The notes beneath the pieces are model-generated. The model saw only the letters and a program-made list of their open reading frames with translations, did not search any database and was not told the origin of the DNA. The translations under genes and the position numbers were made by a program. Positions 21,854-31,448 of a stretch of 64,000 bases of DNA are shown here, one piece after another. Position 1 is the first letter of the stretch. Each line of letters starts with the position of its first letter. Source of the stretch: Escherichia coli (lineage in GTDB: Bacteria > Pseudomonadota > Gammaproteobacteria > Enterobacterales > Enterobacteriaceae); NCBI RefSeq assembly GCF_013122565.1, contig NZ_CP053258.1, one strand, 5' to 3'.

Positions 21854-23377
21854 TTGAGTGTGATGGTAAAAATGTTTGACTCTATGCATGTTCGGGTTGC
21901 TGTAAATTTTGCATCAAAGATAACATTTGCTTTGATATCTATAATTACAATCCCAGTTATAAAATCAAAATTAGGAGTAAATGCTTATGGTGTCCTAACA
22001 TTCTTTCTATCAATCCAGGTAGTTATATTACTGCTTGAGGGGGGAATGAGTGCCACAATGGCTAGAGGACTATTGAATAAAAAATATAAGATATACAATA
22101 TAAGTAAAGCAGAGTACCAAAGTGTTTATTTTATCTTTTTTATCTTAGTGTCATTATTTGTATTTTCAATTTTTATTGTCTTTAACCATAATATTTCCAC
22201 ATTGATTTACAACCTTGATGATAGGGAAGTCTATAGTTTTATTAGTGCTGATTATGTTATTTTGCTGGCTGGTGCAATGATTGCCTTGCAGTTTTATATC
22301 ATATATTATGAAGCATTATTTGTGGCTTATGAAAAACAAGTCTCTTATGGAATTCATATAATAGTATTTAATGTAGTCAAAACCATAATATCATTATTCT
22401 TGTTGATTGTTTTTAATCTTGGGTTGGATGTTTATTTTTTAGTTCATGTATTTTGTACCTTTATACTTATTATTTTATTGCACATTAAGGCAATAAAAAA
22501 CGGATTATTAGAAATAACAACATTGCGAGTAAAAAAAATATACACAAAAATATCATTTATGAAAGAAGAATTTCATTTTTCTAAAAATATATTATGCGTG
22601 TCCATTCTTTCTGCAATTGCATTCCAAGCTGACAGACTATTTATTACAAAATATATGGGTATTAGTGCTGTTGGAATGTATGGCATTGCTTATACATTAT
22701 CAACAGTACCAACTTTATTTACATCATCATTGTATAATGTTATCTATCCAAGACTTATTATTTTAACAAGAGAGCAAAGCAGCAGTGCGATTTCATTTTT
22801 TGAATTAGTATCGAAATTAATATATATTATCATAATACCCACTTGTGTGATTATTTCGCTTAATTCGACCCAAATCCTAAATATTTGGATAGGAAAGCAC
22901 GAAGGAATAATATCATTGCTGTTAAGTATTCTAATAATAGCGACGTTATTTCAGGGGTTGCAGGTGATTCCTTTTGCACTACAGATGGCTCAAGAACGAC
23001 TAAAATTTACAGTTTTCATGAATGCTATATTTGTGCCCAGCCTAATATTGGCATATTATTTGGTTAGTATTCATAAAATTCTGTTATACATCTCCATAGT
23101 GTGGTCGGTATATAATATAATAACTTTTTTCTCTTTAACTATTTATTTATATGCTAAAAATAAAATGTATACAAGACTACTTATTTTATATTTTAATATA
23201 TGCTTGTGTGCTGTCGTAACAGTAGTTATATGTAGCATTTTTAAAAATCAAGAATCTCAAATATTCTTGTCTCTAGTTAATATTTCTCTTCAGTTTTTTA
23301 TGTCGATGAGCTTGTGCATAATACTGTTGTTCTGGAAAACTATATATGGAGCATTGAGATGTGTTTGTTGTCGGTAG
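21854..23377 (+). CDS. wzx: O-antigen flippase Wzx (polytopic membrane protein)
   Basis: Very hydrophobic ORF with many predicted TM segments; N-terminal region …ITFALISIITIPVIKSKLGVNAYGVLTFF… resembles Wzx/MOP-family signatures; true start may be an internal Met (track ORF 507 aa). Confidence 0.7.
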   Translation: MSVMVKMFDSMHVRVAVNFASKITFALISIITIPVIKSKLGVNAYGVLTFFLSIQVVILLLEGGMSATMARGLLNKKYKIYNISKAEYQSVYFIFFILVSLFVFSIFIVFNHNISTLIYNLDDREVYSFISADYVILLAGAMIALQFYIIYYEALFVAYEKQVSYGIHIIVFNVVKTIISLFLLIVFNLGLDVYFLVHVFCTFILIILLHIKAIKNGLLEITTLRVKKIYTKISFMKEEFHFSKNILCVSILSAIAFQADRLFITKYMGISAVGMYGIAYTLSTVPTLFTSSLYNVIYPRLIILTREQSSSAISFFELVSKLIYIIIIPTCVIISLNSTQILNIWIGKHEGIISLLLSILIIATLFQGLQVIPFALQMAQERLKFTVFMNAIFVPSLILAYYLVSIHKILLYISIVWSVYNIITFFSLTIYLYAKNKMYTRLLILYFNICLCAVVTVVICSIFKNQESQIFLSLVNISLQFFMSMSLCIILLFWKTIYGALRCVCCR

Positions 23378-24528
23378 TAATTGCGACTCATAATCGCGCG
23401 GGATATGCTAAAAAAAGCATAGAAAGTATTCTTTCAATTGATGTTGAAGAATTTCAACTAATTATTCATGATACAAGCGATAATAATGTACTTGAGGAAT
23501 TTTGCGCTGAAATCCAGGATGCTAGATTAAAATATATCCATTGCAATGAATTATTGTCGATGACAGAAAATTTTAATAGAGCATTAGAATATGTTCAGGG
23601 AGAATATACTATAATGATAGGAGATGATGATACGATTTTATCGACAGCGATAAAATATTGTAGATATGCGAAAGAAAAAAAAATTGATGTAATCTCGCAG
23701 AAGATATCTGCAGAGTATTGTTGGCCGGATTTTAGATCTAAGATCTCAGGGGATTTTAACGCATCGTCTCTGATAGTGAACAAATTTACAAGTAACCAAG
23801 TTACTTATGAGGGGCGTAAACAATACTATGAAGCAGTTAAAAACTGTTTTCAAGGTACTGCAAGCCTCCCCAAGTTATATCATGGTATTGTTAAAACTTC
23901 TTTATTGTTAAAGATAAAAGAAAATACAGGTACTTACTTTCATGGGGTTAGCCCTGATATTTCAATTGCATTGTCGTTAGCGTATAACTGCGAACGATAT
24001 ATTGAAGTGGATTATCCAATTACCCTTCCAGGATCTTCGGGGGGAAGTAACGCAGGTAGAAGTGCAATGCGTACTCATGTTGGTAAATTAGACGACGATC
24101 CACATATGAAAAGATTTAAAAGTTATGTCTGGCCAAACTTATTGCCAAGATATTTCAGTGTAGAGACTGTGTGGGCTCAGGCAGGCTTAGTAACAATCCA
24201 AAAAATAGATAATAATAAAGGATTTAATTTTATTAAGTTCTATGCATTATGTTTGATTAAACATCGACCCTATAAAAAATTTATTATTGATGAGATAAAA
24301 AAATACAAGAAAGTAAAAGGAGGGTTTAATTGTATAATTTATACAAAAATTATTTATCACATGTCTTATTTTTATATTAATGGAATATCAAATCTTTCTA
24401 AAAAAATTATAAAATATGTCTTCAAAAAACTTAAGTCTCAAGAGAAGCAAAAAAATATAAAAGCAAATGATATTTTTGAAGCCAGGATGATAATTGAAAA
24501 GGAATTATCAAAGGAAACATTTGAATGA
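23362..24528 (+). CDS. Glycosyltransferase, GT2 family (O-antigen)
   Basis: Track ORF 23314..24528; GT2 N-terminal signature LLSVVIATHNRAGYAKKSIESI and a DxD-like IGDDD; start chosen at MCLLSVV…, overlapping the wzx 3' end. Confidence 0.75.
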   Translation, partial: CLLSVVIATHNRAGYAKKSIESILSIDVEEFQLIIHDTSDNNVLEEFCAEIQDARLKYIHCNELLSMTENFNRALEYVQGEYTIMIGDDDTILSTAIKYCRYAKEKKIDVISQKISAEYCWPDFRSKISGDFNASSLIVNKFTSNQVTYEGRKQYYEAVKNCFQGTASLPKLYHGIVKTSLLLKIKENTGTYFHGVSPDISIALSLAYNCERYIEVDYPITLPGSSGGSNAGRSAMRTHVGKLDDDPHMKRFKSYVWPNLLPRYFSVETVWAQAGLVTIQKIDNNKGFNFIKFYALCLIKHRPYKKFIIDEIKKYKKVKGGFNCIIYTKIIYHMSYFYINGISNLSKKIIKYVFKKLKSQEKQKNIKANDIFEARMIIEKELSKETFE

Positions 24529-25610
24529 TTATATTTTTTACTTTTCTACTTTTCTACTTTTTTATTTTTCTTTCATTGCTTCCTGTTTTAATTAAAGAGA
24601 GAACTAGAGGGAATGGCAAATATTTTTATTTCTTTGATTTATATATTTACTTAGTATTAGCTAGTCTTATTATTTATATAATTTGTACACGAGATATTTT
24701 TTCTGACTCCGATACAGAACGTTATCTTAGTATATTAGAATATTATAGAATAAATGGCTTTTATCTTTTTGATAAGAACTATATTTTTGCTGTGTATACA
24801 TATTTGTACTCTCTATATATAGATGGTTACTATATGTATATGATAATCCCACTTATTACCCTGCTATATTCATATTGTAAGTTAGTAAAACCACTAAAAT
24901 ATCCTGTTTATAGTTTTTCTTTAGTATTAATAGCAACATTTCCTGTTTTTTGGCAATTGAGCGCAAGCGCATTTAAACAATGCATTGCAATATCTTTTAT
25001 TCTTTTAGCATTAGTGCATATTATACAAACAAAATATAAACAAGCGGTGCTTTTATCTCTTATAGCTAGTTCCTTCCATTTCACAGCATTAACATTTTTT
25101 ATATTTTCGTTGTTTTTCTATATTAGAAAGGAAAGGGTCAGTTTAAATTTATTTTTTTTTATTTGGTTTTTTAGTGTCATTTTTAGCATAAGCGGATTAA
25201 ATTCGTATATTCCTTCAATTATACCTTTTTATGATTTAGTGGGTGAAAGTAAGGTCAATATTTATCTTGAATCAACAAATAATGCAACTGGTTTTCGTGT
25301 TGATTTCTTTTTGTTTTCACTAGCCCCTGTGTTAATTATATTTATTAACAGAACATTAGTAATAAAAGATCGCTATATTAAAATGATTGCATTAAGTTAT
25401 TTATATTTCAATTCTATATATAATATAATGTCATTCATCCCATTTTCAGATAGAGTTGCCGCATATTCATGGTGTCTTTCCCCCATTATTCTATTATGGA
25501 GTGCTCTTAAGTGTAGATCATCAATTTATATGTTAAGTTCTATAGGGATTGCGTTATTAAATCCTTTGATTTTTATGTACTATAATTCATTGTTTATTTT
25601 TTTAAAGTGA
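24525..25610 (+). CDS. wzy: O-antigen polymerase Wzy (polytopic membrane protein)
   Basis: 361 aa, extremely hydrophobic and AT-rich with about 10 predicted TM segments; positioned between GT genes as in typical Wzx/Wzy-dependent clusters. Assignment is by composition and context, since Wzy sequences are poorly conserved. Confidence 0.6.
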   Translation: MIIFFTFLLFYFFIFLSLLPVLIKERTRGNGKYFYFFDLYIYLVLASLIIYIICTRDIFSDSDTERYLSILEYYRINGFYLFDKNYIFAVYTYLYSLYIDGYYMYMIIPLITLLYSYCKLVKPLKYPVYSFSLVLIATFPVFWQLSASAFKQCIAISFILLALVHIIQTKYKQAVLLSLIASSFHFTALTFFIFSLFFYIRKERVSLNLFFFIWFFSVIFSISGLNSYIPSIIPFYDLVGESKVNIYLESTNNATGFRVDFFLFSLAPVLIIFINRTLVIKDRYIKMIALSYLYFNSIYNIMSFIPFSDRVAAYSWCLSPIILLWSALKCRSSIYMLSSIGIALLNPLIFMYYNSLFIFLK

Positions 25611-25616
25611 GTATAT

Positions 25617-26630
25617 ATGTTTAACGGTAAAAAGATTTTAATCACTGGTGGTACTGGGTCATTTGGTAATGCAGTGTTACGTCGGTTTCTTGAGACAGAT
25701 ATTCAAGAGGTTATTATTTTCAGTAGAGATGAAAAAAAACAAGATGAGATGAGAACGCTATATCGCAATGATAAAATGAAATTTATTATAGGTGATATTA
25801 GAGATTATACATCTGTTTTAGCTGCAACTAGTGACGTTGACTATATATTCCATGCTGCGGCTTTAAAACAGGTGCCTTCATGTGAATTTTATCCATGGGA
25901 AGCAGTTAAAACGAATATAATTGGTACAGAAAATTTATTAAATGCTGCAAAACAAAATAAAGTTAAAAAAACAATTTGTTTGAGCACTGATAAAGCTGTG
26001 TATCCAATTAACGCAATGGGAATTTCGAAGGCTATGATGGAAAAAGTGATGACAGCAAAGGCTAGGACGTTCAACAATGAAGATTCAGTTGTTTGCGGAA
26101 CTCGTTATGGCAATGTTATGGCATCACGCGGCTCTGTTATCCCTCTGTTCATTCAGCAGATTCAAACAAATCAACCATTAACTATAACAGACCCTGAAAT
26201 GACTAGATTCATGATGACGTTAGATGATGCTGTAGATCTCGTATTATTTGCATTTAATAACGGGCAAAACGGTGACATTTTTGTTCAGAAAGCGCCTGCC
26301 GCGACAATTGCTGTGCTTGCTAAAGCATTAGTTGAATTGATGGGGGTGCCAAACCATCCTATTAAAGTAGTTGGTTCACGTCATGGGGAAAAGATATATG
26401 AAACCTTACTTAGCCGTGAAGAAATGGCAAAAGCGATTGATCATGGAGATTATTATCAGATTCAACCAGATAATCGTGATCTGAATTATGACAAATATTT
26501 AAGCGAAGGGAGTAAAAAAATTGAGCTGTTTGATGATTACAATTCCCATAATACATATAGACTCAATGTTGATGAAATGAAAAAATTATTGTTAAAACTC
26601 AATATCATTCAAAATGTGTTAAATAGTTAA
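25617..26630 (+). CDS. UDP-N-acetylglucosamine 4,6-dehydratase/5-epimerase (FnlA/WbvB/CapE family)
   Basis: 337 aa starting MFNGKKILITGGTGSFGNAVLRRFLETDI with …YIFHAAALKQVPSCEF… and …CLSTDKAVYPINAMGISKAMMEKV…, closely resembling recalled FnlA/Cap5E sequences. Confidence 0.85.
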   Translation: MFNGKKILITGGTGSFGNAVLRRFLETDIQEVIIFSRDEKKQDEMRTLYRNDKMKFIIGDIRDYTSVLAATSDVDYIFHAAALKQVPSCEFYPWEAVKTNIIGTENLLNAAKQNKVKKTICLSTDKAVYPINAMGISKAMMEKVMTAKARTFNNEDSVVCGTRYGNVMASRGSVIPLFIQQIQTNQPLTITDPEMTRFMMTLDDAVDLVLFAFNNGQNGDIFVQKAPAATIAVLAKALVELMGVPNHPIKVVGSRHGEKIYETLLSREEMAKAIDHGDYYQIQPDNRDLNYDKYLSEGSKKIELFDDYNSHNTYRLNVDEMKKLLLKLNIIQNVLNS

Positions 26631-26642
26631 GGATAATTTATA

Positions 26643-27512
26643 ATGCAAAAAATATTGATCTTAGGTGTGAGTGGTATGCTTGGGCATACCCTCTTTCGTT
26701 TTTTATCATCTCAGCAGGATCTTTTAGTAACTGGTACAGTACGCCATATTACGCAAGAAATAAAATTAGTATCATCTAAGAATATAGTCCTGATGAGAGA
26801 TGTCTTTAACAAAGAAAAATTAGAAAACATTATAAATTCGAATGATGTTATTATAAATTGCATTGGCGCAATTAAGCAGAAATATGATAATAAAAATACA
26901 GATTATATTCTGTTAAATTCGTACTTTCCACATCTTCTTAATGAAATTTGTATAGAATCTAATAAAAGGCTAATTCATTTCTCAACAGATTGTATTTTTA
27001 ACGGTGAGAAAGGAAATTATGATGATGGTAGTTTATCAAATGTTATAGATATGTATGGTAAATCTAAATATTTAGGTGAGGTTTATGGTGATAAAACACT
27101 TACTTTAAGGACATCATTAATTGGGCATGAATTAAAATCATCGTATAGTTTGATTGATTGGTTTTTGAACTCAAACTCAACTGTCAATGGTTATACAAAA
27201 GCTATTTTCAGTGGATTGCCAACCATAGAAATTGCGCATTTTTTATATGAGCATGTTTTACAATCCCAGTTGCATGGTATTTATAATTTATCAGCAGCAC
27301 CAATTTCAAAATTCGATTTATTGACTTTAGTCAATGAAGTATACAAACTTAATAAAACCATCGTTCCTAAAAGTGACTTTGTGATTGATCGTTCTCTTGA
27401 CTCTCATAGGTTGCGTTCATTAACTAAGTATACACCTCCTGACTGGAATACTCTTGTTGTAAAGATGTATTTAGATTACTTAAGTTTAGGGGCATTGCTT
27501 AATGAAAGATAA
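26643..27512 (+). CDS. RmlD-like NAD(P)-dependent sugar-nucleotide 4-reductase (WbvR/QnlB-like)
   Basis: 289 aa starting MQKILILGVSGMLGHTLFRFL (Rossmann GxxGxxG) with YGKSK catalytic dyad; length and family fit dTDP-4-dehydrorhamnose reductase-like enzymes that follow FnlA-type dehydratases in L-QuiNAc/L-RhaNAc pathways. Confidence 0.7.
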   Translation: MQKILILGVSGMLGHTLFRFLSSQQDLLVTGTVRHITQEIKLVSSKNIVLMRDVFNKEKLENIINSNDVIINCIGAIKQKYDNKNTDYILLNSYFPHLLNEICIESNKRLIHFSTDCIFNGEKGNYDDGSLSNVIDMYGKSKYLGEVYGDKTLTLRTSLIGHELKSSYSLIDWFLNSNSTVNGYTKAIFSGLPTIEIAHFLYEHVLQSQLHGIYNLSAAPISKFDLLTLVNEVYKLNKTIVPKSDFVIDRSLDSHRLRSLTKYTPPDWNTLVVKMYLDYLSLGALLNER

Positions 27513-27969
27513 CTTATCTTTTTCTAAACTGATTTCTGAAGCTGAGATTAACTCCAGAAATCGTTCTCATCTTAATTTGCATGAATCTTTTTCTGATCCT
27601 ATACAGAAAACTTTGATTTGCTGTTGTTCGAACACGTATATTCCTCCTCACTATCATAAATTTGCCCATCAAAGTGAATTGTTTATTAGATTAAAAGGAT
27701 GTTTTAGTCTATTAATTTTTTCTGTTGATGGAGTGCTTACCCGTCGTATAACTATAGATGAGGAAAATCCTCTTTATGAGATAAAACCAGGTGTTATTCA
27801 TACGGTGGTAGCTTTAGACAGACATAACATTTTACTTGAAATTAAGAGGGGACCGTATGTCGAATCTGAAGCGAAAAATTTTCCTGATTGGGTAACATTA
27901 GAAAATAGCGATAATCAACTTGATTTAGAGCGATTGCGAACATTGAAGGTCGGTGATAAGTTATCATAA
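27502..27969 (+). CDS. WbuC-like cupin-fold protein of unknown function
   Basis: 155 aa; start overlaps the reductase stop; His-rich motif (…YIPPHYHKFAHQSE…) consistent with a cupin metal site; recalled co-occurrence of WbuC-family cupins with fnl-type genes in O-antigen clusters. Confidence 0.5.
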   Translation: MKDNLSFSKLISEAEINSRNRSHLNLHESFSDPIQKTLICCCSNTYIPPHYHKFAHQSELFIRLKGCFSLLIFSVDGVLTRRITIDEENPLYEIKPGVIHTVVALDRHNILLEIKRGPYVESEAKNFPDWVTLENSDNQLDLERLRTLKVGDKLS

Positions 27970-28003
27970 CAAGGCTATTATAAATTTATTTTAGGTGATA
28001 TCT

Positions 28004-28801
28004 ATGCTTCCATTAATATCTATTATTACACCGACATATAATAGAGCATATACTCTAGATCGGTTATATAATTCTTTAGTAACACAAGACTCTGAAAAAT
28101 TCGAATGGATAATAATCGACGATGGTAGTGCAGATGAAACACGGAAGAAATGTTTAGGTTATATAAATGATTCCATTTTTAAAATACAATATTACAAACA
28201 AGATAATAGTGGTAAACCCGCAGCTATCAATTTAGGAGTAACCAAAGCTGTTGGCGATTATATTTTTATTGTAGATAGTGATGATGCTTTAACATTAAAT
28301 GCAATTGGTACTATTTATGACTGTATTGTAAAATACACAGTCGCATCTGACTTTGAATTTTCCGGCTTAGGATTTAGAAAATCTTTTTTTGATGGGAAAA
28401 TGCTCGGCAAACATATTGAGCGGAATACGAATTCACCTATGCTGTTACATAGCACAGATTGTAATAATTTATTTAAAGTCGATTTAGCATATTGTTTTAA
28501 ACGAGAATTGATGATTAAATATCCTTTCCCAAAGTTTAAAGATGAAAAATTTGTTCCAGAACTGTTTATATGGAATAAAATTACAGATGTTGCCAAAGTA
28601 ATATTTTTTCCTAATGTTGTTGTATATTATTGTGAGTATCTGGCTGATGGACTTACAAATAATTTTAAAAAACAACTTCGACATAATCCAATTGGCTTTG
28701 CAGTATACTATAAAGATCAGTTCCATAGAGAACATTCTATATGGGGGAAAATAAAAATGGCAATAAGATATATCCAATGTATTATATATAAATTCATATA
28801 G
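28004..28801 (+). CDS. Glycosyltransferase, GT2 family (O-antigen)
   Basis: Track ORF from a GTG at 27995; ATG at 28004 preceded by aggtga; GT2 signature ISIITPTYNRAYTLDRLYNSL and DxD (IIDDGSADE, VDSDD). Confidence 0.75.
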   Translation: MLPLISIITPTYNRAYTLDRLYNSLVTQDSEKFEWIIIDDGSADETRKKCLGYINDSIFKIQYYKQDNSGKPAAINLGVTKAVGDYIFIVDSDDALTLNAIGTIYDCIVKYTVASDFEFSGLGFRKSFFDGKMLGKHIERNTNSPMLLHSTDCNNLFKVDLAYCFKRELMIKYPFPKFKDEKFVPELFIWNKITDVAKVIFFPNVVVYYCEYLADGLTNNFKKQLRHNPIGFAVYYKDQFHREHSIWGKIKMAIRYIQCIIYKFI

Positions 28802-28848
28802 TCATGCAGGGTTCATCCATTCATTTAATTAGTTGCTATGATTTTTAT

Positions 28849-29922
28849 ATGAAAATATTACATGTTGTACCACAGTTAAAGCATGGTGGTGTCGAAACTG
28901 CTGTTTTTAATTCTATTGAAAGGATAAGAAAGAGTGGATATGATTTTAATGTTTTGACTATTGAAAGAGGAAACTGCTTTAACAATTCATATGTAAAAGT
29001 AGAACACTGCTTAAATTCTTCTGTATACAATCCAGTTTGTTTTTATAAATTTATTAGATTTATTCATAAAGAAAAACCTGATTTGATAGTTTATTCTTTA
29101 TGGAAATCTGCATTGTTAGGAATTGCATTGTGTCTTTTAAAACCTTTTCTCAAAAGTAAGCCTAAAACCGCGTTAATTATACATAATACTAGGTTTGCAC
29201 ATTTTGTTGATTACATAATAACAAAACTTTCACTTAAAATAACCGACTCTATATATTTTGATTCGGAAAAATCAAAAGCTTACTTTCTGAATAGAGATTA
29301 TGCAACAGGCGAGGTTATTAGTTTTATCGATAAAAAGATGGTGGCAAAAAAATTTAATAATATCAATGGTGAGATTAAGTTTGTATTTATTGGTAGGTTG
29401 CACTCTCAAAAAGGGGTTGATAGGGCATTAAAATATATACATCTTTTTAAAAAGCAACATGAAGAAATACGATTTGATATATATGGTCCAGACGAAGGAG
29501 AATTGAATAATATTATAAATAAGATAAATAAATTAGGATTGCAGGATAAAGTTGTCTATAAAGGTGTTGTCGATAATAACAAAGTTAATGATATATTAAC
29601 CCAATATGACTTTTATCTTCAATTCAGCCATTTTGAAGGAATGGCAATGTCTGTTGTTGATGCGATGCAGGTTGGGGTTATTCCAATCGTTAATAATGTT
29701 GGTGAGATACCAAATTACGTAAAAAACAATATTAACGGCATTATCTTAGATGATAAAAAGCTTGGTGATGAAAACTATCTTAATTTAAATGTATCATGCT
29801 TATTAAATATCATAAAGAATGATGGTGGGTATTTTTTATATAATAACGCGATAAAGACATTTCAGGATAATAATACTTATGTAGATGACTATATAAAGAA
29901 AATAATAAATGCTAACAACTGA
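28849..29922 (+). CDS. Glycosyltransferase, GT4 family (O-antigen)
   Basis: Track ORF 28804..29922; start chosen at MKILHVVPQLKHGGVETAV; C-terminal …FSHFEGMAMSVVDAMQVGVIPIV… is GT4-like; last gene before gnd. Confidence 0.75.
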   Translation: MKILHVVPQLKHGGVETAVFNSIERIRKSGYDFNVLTIERGNCFNNSYVKVEHCLNSSVYNPVCFYKFIRFIHKEKPDLIVYSLWKSALLGIALCLLKPFLKSKPKTALIIHNTRFAHFVDYIITKLSLKITDSIYFDSEKSKAYFLNRDYATGEVISFIDKKMVAKKFNNINGEIKFVFIGRLHSQKGVDRALKYIHLFKKQHEEIRFDIYGPDEGELNNIINKINKLGLQDKVVYKGVVDNNKVNDILTQYDFYLQFSHFEGMAMSVVDAMQVGVIPIVNNVGEIPNYVKNNINGIILDDKKLGDENYLNLNVSCLLNIIKNDGGYFLYNNAIKTFQDNNTYVDDYIKKIINANN

Positions 29923-30041
29923 TATCATGTGTTAAAATTGATTATTTAAAATGGTTTATATAGCTCCTACTAAATAATTTGGCTTTTTCGTAATGGCTGT
30001 GTAGCCGCAATCTCGCAGTAACCCCCTGACAGGAGTAAACA

Positions 30042-31448
30042 ATGTCAAAGCAACAGATCGGCGTCGTCGGTATGGCAGTGATGGGACGCAACCTTGCGCT
30101 CAACATCGAAAGCCGTGGTTATACCGTCTCTATTTTCAACCGTTCCCGTGAAAAGACGGAAGAAGTGATTGCCGAAAATCCAGGCAAAAAACTGGTTCCT
30201 TACTATACGGTGAAAGAGTTCGTTGAATCTCTTGAAACGCCTCGTCGCATCCTGTTAATGGTGAAAGCAGGTGCAGGCACGGATGCTGCTATTGATTCCC
30301 TCAAACCATATCTCGATAAAGGTGACATCATCATTGATGGTGGTAACACCTTCTTCCAGGACACTATTCGTCGTAATCGTGAGCTTTCAGCAGAGGGCTT
30401 TAACTTCATCGGTACCGGTGTTTCCGGCGGTGAAGAGGGGGCGCTGAAAGGGCCTTCCATTATGCCTGGTGGGCAGAAAGAAGCCTATGAACTGGTTGCT
30501 CCGATCCTGACCAAAATCGCCGCCGTTGCTGAAGATGGCGAACCGTGCGTTACCTATATTGGTGCCGATGGCGCGGGTCACTATGTGAAGATGGTTCACA
30601 ACGGTATTGAATACGGTGATATGCAACTGATTGCTGAAGCCTATTCTCTGCTTAAAGGTGGCCTTAATCTTTCCAACGAAGAACTGGCGCAGACGCTTAC
30701 CGAGTGGAATAACGGTGAACTGAGCAGCTACCTGATCGACATCACCAAAGACATCTTCACTAAAAAAGATGAAGACGGTAACTACCTGGTTGATGTGATC
30801 CTGGATGAAGCGGCTAACAAAGGTACCGGTAAATGGACCAGCCAGAGCGCGCTTGATCTCGGCGAACCGCTGTCGCTGATTACCGAGTCTGTGTTTGCAC
30901 GTTATATCTCTTCTCTGAAAGAGCAGCGTGTTGCCGCATCTAAAGTTCTCTCTGGCCCGCAAGCGCAGCCAGCTGGCGACAAAGGTGAGTTCATCGAAAA
31001 AGTTCGTCGTGCTCTGTATCTGGGCAAAATCGTTTCTTACGCTCAGGGCTTCTCTCAGCTGCGTGCGGCGTCTGAAGAGTACAACTGGGATCTGAATTAC
31101 GGCGAAATCGCGAAGATTTTCCGTGCTGGCTGCATCATCCGTGCGCAGTTCTTGCAGAAAATCACCGATGCTTATGCCGAAAATCCGCAGATCGCTAACC
31201 TGCTGCTGGCTCCGTACTTCAAGCAAATTGCCGATGACTACCAGCAGGCGCTGCGTGATGTCGTTGCTTATGCAGTACAGAACGGTATCCCGGTTCCGAC
31301 CTTCGCTGCTGCGGTTGCCTATTACGATAGCTACCGTGCCGCTGTTCTGCCTGCGAACCTGATCCAGGCACAGCGTGACTATTTCGGTGCGCATACTTAT
31401 AAGCGCATTGATAAAGAAGGTGTGTTCCATACTGAATGGCTGGATTAA
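30042..31448 (+). CDS. gnd: 6-phosphogluconate dehydrogenase, decarboxylating
   Basis: 468 aa starting [30 protein letters not shown]; canonical right flank of the O-antigen locus. Confidence 0.97.

Follow-up and report, generated by a model that had tools for sequence, protein, structure and literature searches.

The O3 O-antigen cluster of Escherichia coli contains a dehydratase, reductase and cupin module that very probably makes UDP-L-RhaNAc and needs no 2-epimerase

A 64-kb window of E. coli chromosomal DNA (the whole stretch analysed, 64,000 nucleotides of contig NZ_CP053258.1) carries an O-antigen cluster of serogroup O3. Three consecutive genes in this cluster code for an FnlA-type dehydratase-epimerase, a short QnlA-type reductase and a WbuC-family cupin. 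We hold with high confidence that they constitute the O3 nucleotide-sugar module for the synthesis of uridine diphosphate (UDP)-activated N-acetyl-L-rhamnosamine (UDP-L-RhaNAc), that the absence of a UDP-sugar 2-epimerase is expected, and that WbuC is no substitute for such an enzyme. An earlier note on this DNA had regarded the pathway as truncated, with a cupin in place of the 2-epimerase, and had deduced that a dehydratase and an RmlD-like reductase would yield UDP-L-RhaNAc and nothing further. The deduced product agrees with the published O3 sugar (PMC7685785) and pathway (PMC5560731), while the view of a truncated pathway is not supported, as L-RhaNAc as an end product requires no 2-epimerisation. 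The gene identities, the serogroup assignment, the lack of an epimerase and the patterns of co-occurrence reported here derive from this analysis, and the sugar composition of O3 and the activities of the homologous enzymes are taken from the literature. The assignment of L-RhaNAc to O3 is already established knowledge; the sugar product deduced from the raw sequence matches the published O3 chemistry and adds nothing new to O-antigen biology.

The window includes colanic-acid genes, galF, a low-GC block, gnd, ugd, wzz and the his operon. The G+C content between 20 and 30 kb is 27-33%, against ~50-55% in the flanks, and the low-GC block between galF and gnd corresponds to the O-antigen cluster. 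Its genes follow the order ISAs1 transposase, family 4 glycosyltransferase (GT4), wzx, family 2 glycosyltransferase (GT2), wzy, fnlA-type, qnlA-type, wbuC, GT2 and GT4. When positions 19800-29950 were compared by megablast against 5,426 complete E. coli genomes, sixteen matched over the full length, each with at least 99% identity, and these are annotated as encoding an "O3 family O-antigen flippase/polymerase" (annotation viewed in one genome). Since the cluster is at least 99% identical at the DNA level, over the whole 10 kb, to the sixteen genomes with O3 wzx and wzy genes, the locus is the galF-gnd O-antigen cluster of E. coli serogroup O3; the gene order matches as well, including the ISAs1 element after galF. 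This conservation, together with public database entries for proteins that are identical or 99% identical to theirs (P0001, P0121), indicates that the three open reading frames (ORFs) are real genes. The E. coli O3 cluster was reportedly first described by Ren et al. in 2008 (GenBank EU694097), and the work of Medina et al. from 1994 is said to be the primary reference for the O3 polysaccharide structure.

In the characterized pathways, FnlA forms UDP-4-keto-6-deoxy-L-N-acetylhexosamine (UDP-4-keto-6-deoxy-L-HexNAc), from which FnlB and FnlC lead to N-acetyl-L-fucosamine (L-FucNAc); in an alternative branch, QnlA produces UDP-L-RhaNAc and QnlB, the "UDP-L-RhaNAc 2-epimerase", converts it to UDP-activated N-acetyl-L-quinovosamine (UDP-L-QuiNAc) (PMC5560731). 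Among the O antigens of E. coli, L-RhaNAc occurs only in O3, and there only as a side-branch sugar (PMC7685785). In the O3 module, FnlA would convert UDP-N-acetyl-D-glucosamine (UDP-D-GlcNAc) to UDP-4-keto-6-deoxy-L-HexNAc by 4,6-dehydration and C5 epimerisation, after which the 289-aa QnlA/WbvR-type short-chain dehydrogenase/reductase (SDR) would catalyse C3 epimerisation and C4 reduction with NAD(P)H to give UDP-L-RhaNAc (UDP-2-acetamido-2,6-dideoxy-L-mannose). A glycosyltransferase encoded in the cluster would then attach L-RhaNAc as the side branch of the O3 repeat unit. A 2-epimerase would not be needed, as 2-epimerisation converts L-RhaNAc to L-QuiNAc, a sugar unused in O3, and the cupin would often accompany FnlA-based modules without being essential to them, and would not stand in for the 2-epimerase. 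As FnlA and QnlA suffice for UDP-L-RhaNAc synthesis and the O3 antigen contains L-RhaNAc, the module appears functionally complete rather than truncated, and the 2-epimerase is most likely absent because O3 does not use L-QuiNAc.

Comparison with known systems is consistent with this scheme. The first two enzymes have homologues, encoded in the same order, in the L-QuiNAc pathway WbvB-WbvR-WbvD of Vibrio cholerae O37, which corresponds to FnlA-QnlA-QnlB in E. coli O98 and in Proteus. UDP-L-RhaNAc is likewise the product of the second step there, and the three purified Wbv enzymes yield UDP-L-QuiNAc (PMC6765297). O3, however, has neither a 2-epimerase as third enzyme nor the WbuB-type GT4 encoded after it in the L-QuiNAc pathway, and stops at L-RhaNAc. 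The same logic is seen in Megavirus chilensis, where two enzymes, Mg534 and the RmlD-like 3-epimerase/4-reductase Mg535, lead from UDP-GlcNAc to UDP-L-RhaNAc and alone yield UDP-beta-L-RhaNAc in vitro (PMC9614988); this system is viral, has no cupin partner and also encodes a 2-epimerase, Mg536, and is likened to O3 by its pathway logic. The L-FucNAc system FnlA-FnlB-FnlC (CapE-CapF-CapG; WbjB-WbjC-WbjD), as found in E. coli O26, shares the first enzyme with O3 and has WbuC at the end of the module, but differs in that its reductase is a ~368-aa fusion of an SDR and a cupin giving the L-talo product and in that a 2-epimerase is present. The arrangement of fnlA, reductase and wbuC genes with no epimerase gene recurs in a second, O3-like cluster (comparison locus L007) and in an unrelated cluster (L011-L013). 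A paper on an Acinetobacter baumannii K locus, considered as a source for L-RhaNAc genes, concerns L-RhaNAc3NAc and is irrelevant here.

Profile searches with the three proteins returned a strong FnlA match, a clear cupin_WbuC match and a weak rmlD match for the reductase, in line with the classes proposed in the earlier note, and the coordinates and lengths given there are also correct. The 337-aa product of the first gene matches TIGR04130 (FnlA) along its whole length (residues 1-334; 573.9 bits), with the sister family PseB scoring 322.1 bits. It has a GGTGSFG motif at residue 11, followed by D125-K126 and M134xxxK138, which share their residue numbers with those of CapE. The replacement of the SDR tyrosine by methionine (MxxxK) is the CapE signature and sets CapE/FnlA apart from the tyrosine-containing SDRs (PMC3699295). 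On these features, the protein is a predicted FnlA/CapE-type UDP-GlcNAc 4,6-dehydratase/5-epimerase. The equivalog cut-off of TIGR04130 is 730 bits, and both the O3 protein and its O98 counterpart (631.7 bits) fall short of it, while the FnlA of O26 passes (760.6 bits). FnlA proteins partnered with a short QnlA-type reductase (window positions 25617-26630; L006:9001-10038) thus score under the cut-off and the FnlB-linked FnlA passes it, and RefSeq labels the former only as "polysaccharide biosynthesis protein" because they lie below this threshold.

The 289-aa product of the second gene, located 12 nt downstream of fnlA, has the size of the short RmlD-like SDRs of the QnlA type (~270-300 aa) and shares 48% and 49% amino acid identity with the reductases of E. 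coli O98 and V. cholerae, respectively, the genes for which each sit between fnlA and an Epimerase_2 gene. One of its database homologues is named as a UDP-sugar 3-epimerase/4-reductase (P0037). In an alignment of 26 family members Y138, K142, C117 and H162 are invariant; all four are present in the O3 reductase, which furthermore carries a GxxGxxG motif and an intact Y138xxxK142 motif. We therefore place it in the QnlA/WbvR family. Mg535 is a bifunctional 3-epimerase and 4-reductase for which a conserved cysteine has been discussed (PMC9614988), and the invariant C117 and H162 of the QnlA family fit this chemistry.

The third gene encodes a 155-aa protein that clearly matches cupin_WbuC (TIGR04366; 132 bits, cut-off 42), a family also covered by Pfam DUF6016, although it is a divergent member sharing ~31% identity with the WbuC of E. 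coli O98. An exhaustive family search yielded 1,023 representatives at E <= 0.001. In an alignment of 69 WbuC sequences H27, E59, G66, H100 and G117 are invariant and R19, R21, Q35, P49, H50, H52, F73, E113, K115 and P118 nearly so. As all of these residues are retained in the O3 protein, including H50, H52, E59 and H100 of the His/Glu metal motif, it is an intact and probably metal-binding member of the family. Its AlphaFold (AF2) model consists of a single cupin barrel with an N-terminal helix (mean confidence score, pLDDT, 95.2). In O3 the wbuC gene directly follows the reductase gene and not a WbuB-type GT4 gene. The reductase and cupin genes share 11 nt both in the window (27502-27512) and in the unrelated cluster L011 (4022-4032), and the cupin gene of O26 shares 10 nt with the GT4 gene before it; translation of wbuC thus seems to be coupled to that of the gene immediately upstream, whatever this gene may be.

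The earlier note described the WbuC family as having no assigned function, and this still appears to hold: in the papers listed by our literature search wbuC is mainly an annotation beside mcr-9 or blaCTX-M, and none of them is a functional study. One proposal, limited to the cupin and in keeping with UDP-L-RhaNAc as the product, draws on CapF/FnlB, an SDR carrying a fused Zn-cupin domain by which the CapE product is epimerised (PMC5393024). WbuC could be a free-standing counterpart of this C-terminal domain, so that the short reductase and WbuC together would amount to a "split CapF". It would then be a metal-dependent cupin acting on the UDP-4-keto-6-deoxy-L-HexNAc released by FnlA, which would either assist the short reductase by catalysing or speeding up C3 epimerisation or, as an isomerase, bring an off-pathway FnlA-derived by-product back into the pathway. 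If this is true, the fnlA-qnlA-wbuC arrangement of O3, free of both 2-epimerase and WbuB, would offer the smallest natural system for demonstrating the role of the cupin. We consider the proposal improbable. Alignment of the WbuC profile with the FnlB C-terminal domains by hhalign (PF14667 comparison) gave a probability of 58.7% over 66 columns that cover the HxH...E...H core alone, so that the resemblance to the CapF cupin domain appears to lie in a generic metal-motif core and not to be specific. Foldseek comparison of the WbuC model retrieved archaeal cupin phosphoglucose isomerases, oxalate decarboxylase and others, with CapF outside the top 50, and searches of the WbuC profile against the Protein Data Bank gave only marginal matches, to OxdC (0.0018) and the sugar ketoisomerase FdtA (0.002). 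WbuC furthermore also accompanies full-length FnlB, with which a simple logic of complementation fails.

Far less probable is the suggestion, made speculatively in the earlier note, that the cupin supplies the missing epimerase step, with UDP-L-QuiNAc as the product of the module. Cupins can be sugar epimerases or isomerases, and the O3 cupin gene follows the reductase gene in the position that qnlB occupies in O98. The O3 antigen has, however, been reported to contain L-RhaNAc and not L-QuiNAc (PMC7685785), WbuC shows no similarity to the Epimerase_2 family, and the purified systems described above work without a cupin. WbuC moreover normally coexists with a 2-epimerase, as in E. coli O26 (fnlA-fnlB-fnlC-GT4-wbuC-gnd), in E. 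coli O98 and the enterobacterial locus L094 (both fnlA-qnlA-qnlB-GT4-wbuC-gnd), and in L014, L049, L052 and L083, and in L008 wbuC lies directly after fnlC.

The co-occurrence of the two genes was surveyed in 80 QnlA-family loci from species-representative genomes, by ORF prediction and a hidden Markov model scan reaching 10 kb. A FnlA-type gene was found within this distance in 58 loci, and in nearly all of these it is immediately adjacent to the reductase gene. Both FnlA and the epimerase are encoded in 57 loci, with WbuC within 10 kb in four of these, all with the order fnlA-qnlA-qnlB-wbuB-wbuC, and no WbuC in the other 53. A 128-aa ORF in a V. cholerae wbvB-R-D-like locus, considered as a WbuC homologue, is unrelated to the family. 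The locus of Micromonospora antibiotica (L027) is the only one of the 80 with adjacent FnlA-like and QnlA-like genes and neither 2-epimerase nor WbuC within 10 kb, and this organism may be another L-RhaNAc producer.

Distant WbuC relatives occur in two housekeeping neighbourhoods (L095, L096). Another distant member of the WbuC/DUF6016 family (L097:7001-7489) lies in an arn-type operon for the modification of lipid A with 4-amino-4-deoxy-L-arabinose (L-Ara4N), directly after ugd and before PMT_2-family genes, which may encode ArnT-type transferases. This location, together with the association with mcr-9 in the literature, hints at a connection of the WbuC family to lipopolysaccharide modification beyond the FnlA pathways. 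From the neighbourhood survey and the distant members found elsewhere, WbuC often accompanies FnlA modules but is dispensable to them, is independent of the presence of a 2-epimerase and is not confined to these pathways. Annotations of WbuC exist for many O-antigen clusters of enterobacteria and for genes beside mcr-9 and blaCTX-M. The O3 module of dehydratase, reductase and cupin is the simplest natural context for testing its role.

The absence of a 2-epimerase from the cluster, as noted earlier, was borne out in three tests, which extended it to the whole 64-kb window. No match at E <= 1e-5 was obtained when every six-frame ORF of the window with a length of 70 aa or more was searched by phmmer with FnlC (O26), QnlB (O98) and V. 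cholerae WbvD-like seeds. The only ORF of about the expected size (~375 aa) in the cluster, a 372-aa frame at 28804-29922, was considered as a candidate and rejected, as NCBIfam identifies it as a GT4 glycosyltransferase. The search for an unlinked gene was extended to whole genomes with a chimeric DNA query, in which 2.85 kb of the O3 wzx-wzy region was joined to qnlB of O98. This query matched 438 genomes, each in exactly one place: the sixteen O3 genomes by the wzx-wzy part and 422 others by the epimerase part. In these 422 the epimerase gene is single, and it adjoins the reductase gene in every match listed. With one place in each of the 438 genomes, no O3 genome has a FnlC/QnlB-type gene detectable at the DNA level, so that no such gene with ~65% DNA identity or better is present in the sixteen complete O3 genomes.

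Some points nevertheless weigh against the interpretation of the module as a complete route to UDP-L-RhaNAc. The genome-wide epimerase search operated at the DNA level and would miss a very divergent paralogue. The enterobacterial common antigen (ECA) gene wecB is generally present in E. coli and belongs to the same superfamily as the 2-epimerase, and this housekeeping gene went undetected. The activities of the O3 enzymes are predicted from those of their homologues, and the L-manno rather than L-talo outcome of the C4 reduction is likewise deduced from family membership and the published O3 structure. It could be argued from wecB and from the restriction of the chimeric query to the DNA level that a 2-epimerase gene unlinked to the cluster provides the last step towards L-QuiNAc or L-FucNAc, but with a FnlC/QnlB-type gene in none of the sixteen complete O3 genomes and an O3 chemistry that requires no 2-epimerase step, this is extremely improbable.

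Hardly more credible is the reading of the 289-aa protein as a true RmlD acting on deoxythymidine diphosphate (dTDP) sugars, with the fnlA-like gene belonging to another pathway. It derives from the RefSeq name ("dTDP-4-dehydrorhamnose reductase family protein") and from rmlD (TIGR01214) and RmlD_sub_bind being the best and only strong NCBIfam and Pfam matches of the protein. Yet the TIGR01214 score is 57.7 bits against a cut-off of 224, while the genuine RmlD of O26 (RfbD), with which it shares only 22% identity, scores 328.8 bits; the STDY and WVYA motifs of true RmlD (Tyr, Tyr/Ala) are replaced by STDC (C117) and IGHE (H162), as throughout the reductase family; rmlA, rmlB and rmlC are not in the cluster; and the gene stands in tight linkage with fnlA, as its counterparts do at all QnlA loci.

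Table 1. Genes of the O3 O-antigen cluster and its boundaries, with positions in the 64-kb window
Feature	Position	Strand	Remarks
galF	17173..18078	+	Upstream boundary of O-antigen locus
ISAs1-family (H-repeat) transposase gene, 349 aa	18613-19662		Between galF and first O-antigen gene; 376 bits
GT4 glycosyltransferase, 387 aa	19849..21012	+	Flanked by ISAs1 copy and ISAs1 remnant
wzx, O3 O-antigen flippase	21854..23377	+	Annotation in 16 genomes
GT2 glycosyltransferase	23314..24528	+	
wzy, O3 O-antigen polymerase	24525..25610	+	
fnlA-type, predicted UDP-GlcNAc 4,6-dehydratase/5-epimerase, 337 aa	25617..26630	+	TIGR04130 match, CapE signature; putative first step to UDP-L-RhaNAc
qnlA/wbvR-type, predicted UDP-2-acetamido-2,6-dideoxy-L-hexos-4-ulose 3-epimerase/4-reductase, 289 aa	26643..27512	+	Homology to O98 and V. 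cholerae reductases
wbuC-family cupin, 155 aa	27502..27969	+	TIGR04366
GT2 glycosyltransferase, 268 aa	27995..28801	+	
GT4 glycosyltransferase, 372 aa	28804..29922	+	Only GT4-family NCBIfam matches; 2-epimerase-sized
gnd	30042..31448	+	Downstream boundary of O-antigen locus

The remaining features of the cluster are summarised in Table 1. Compared with the O3 strain Ceylon31, the ISAs1 transposase ORF of the window is one 349-aa frame which is split in Ceylon31, where the element is annotated as two coding sequences, and nothing else of substance differs. The first GT4 gene and wzx are separated by 870 bp that contain no long ORF; this gap harbors a decayed, internally deleted ISAs1 remnant (~21162-21752) with 71-74% DNA identity to the upstream copy, the tblastn fragments of which carry in-frame stops. 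The two ISAs1 sequences share the same orientation and bracket the first GT4 gene (19849-21012), which suggests that this gene was acquired or rearranged through insertion sequence activity. On a 10-kb metagenomic contig (L007; Logan ERR14048323) the order of the O3 genes recurs in full (GT4, wzx, GT2, wzy, fnlA, reductase, wbuC, GT2, GT4). Its translated products share 54% (reductase) and ~55% (cupin) amino acid identity with those of O3, and this contig probably derives from a different organism, one producing a polysaccharide similar to that of O3.

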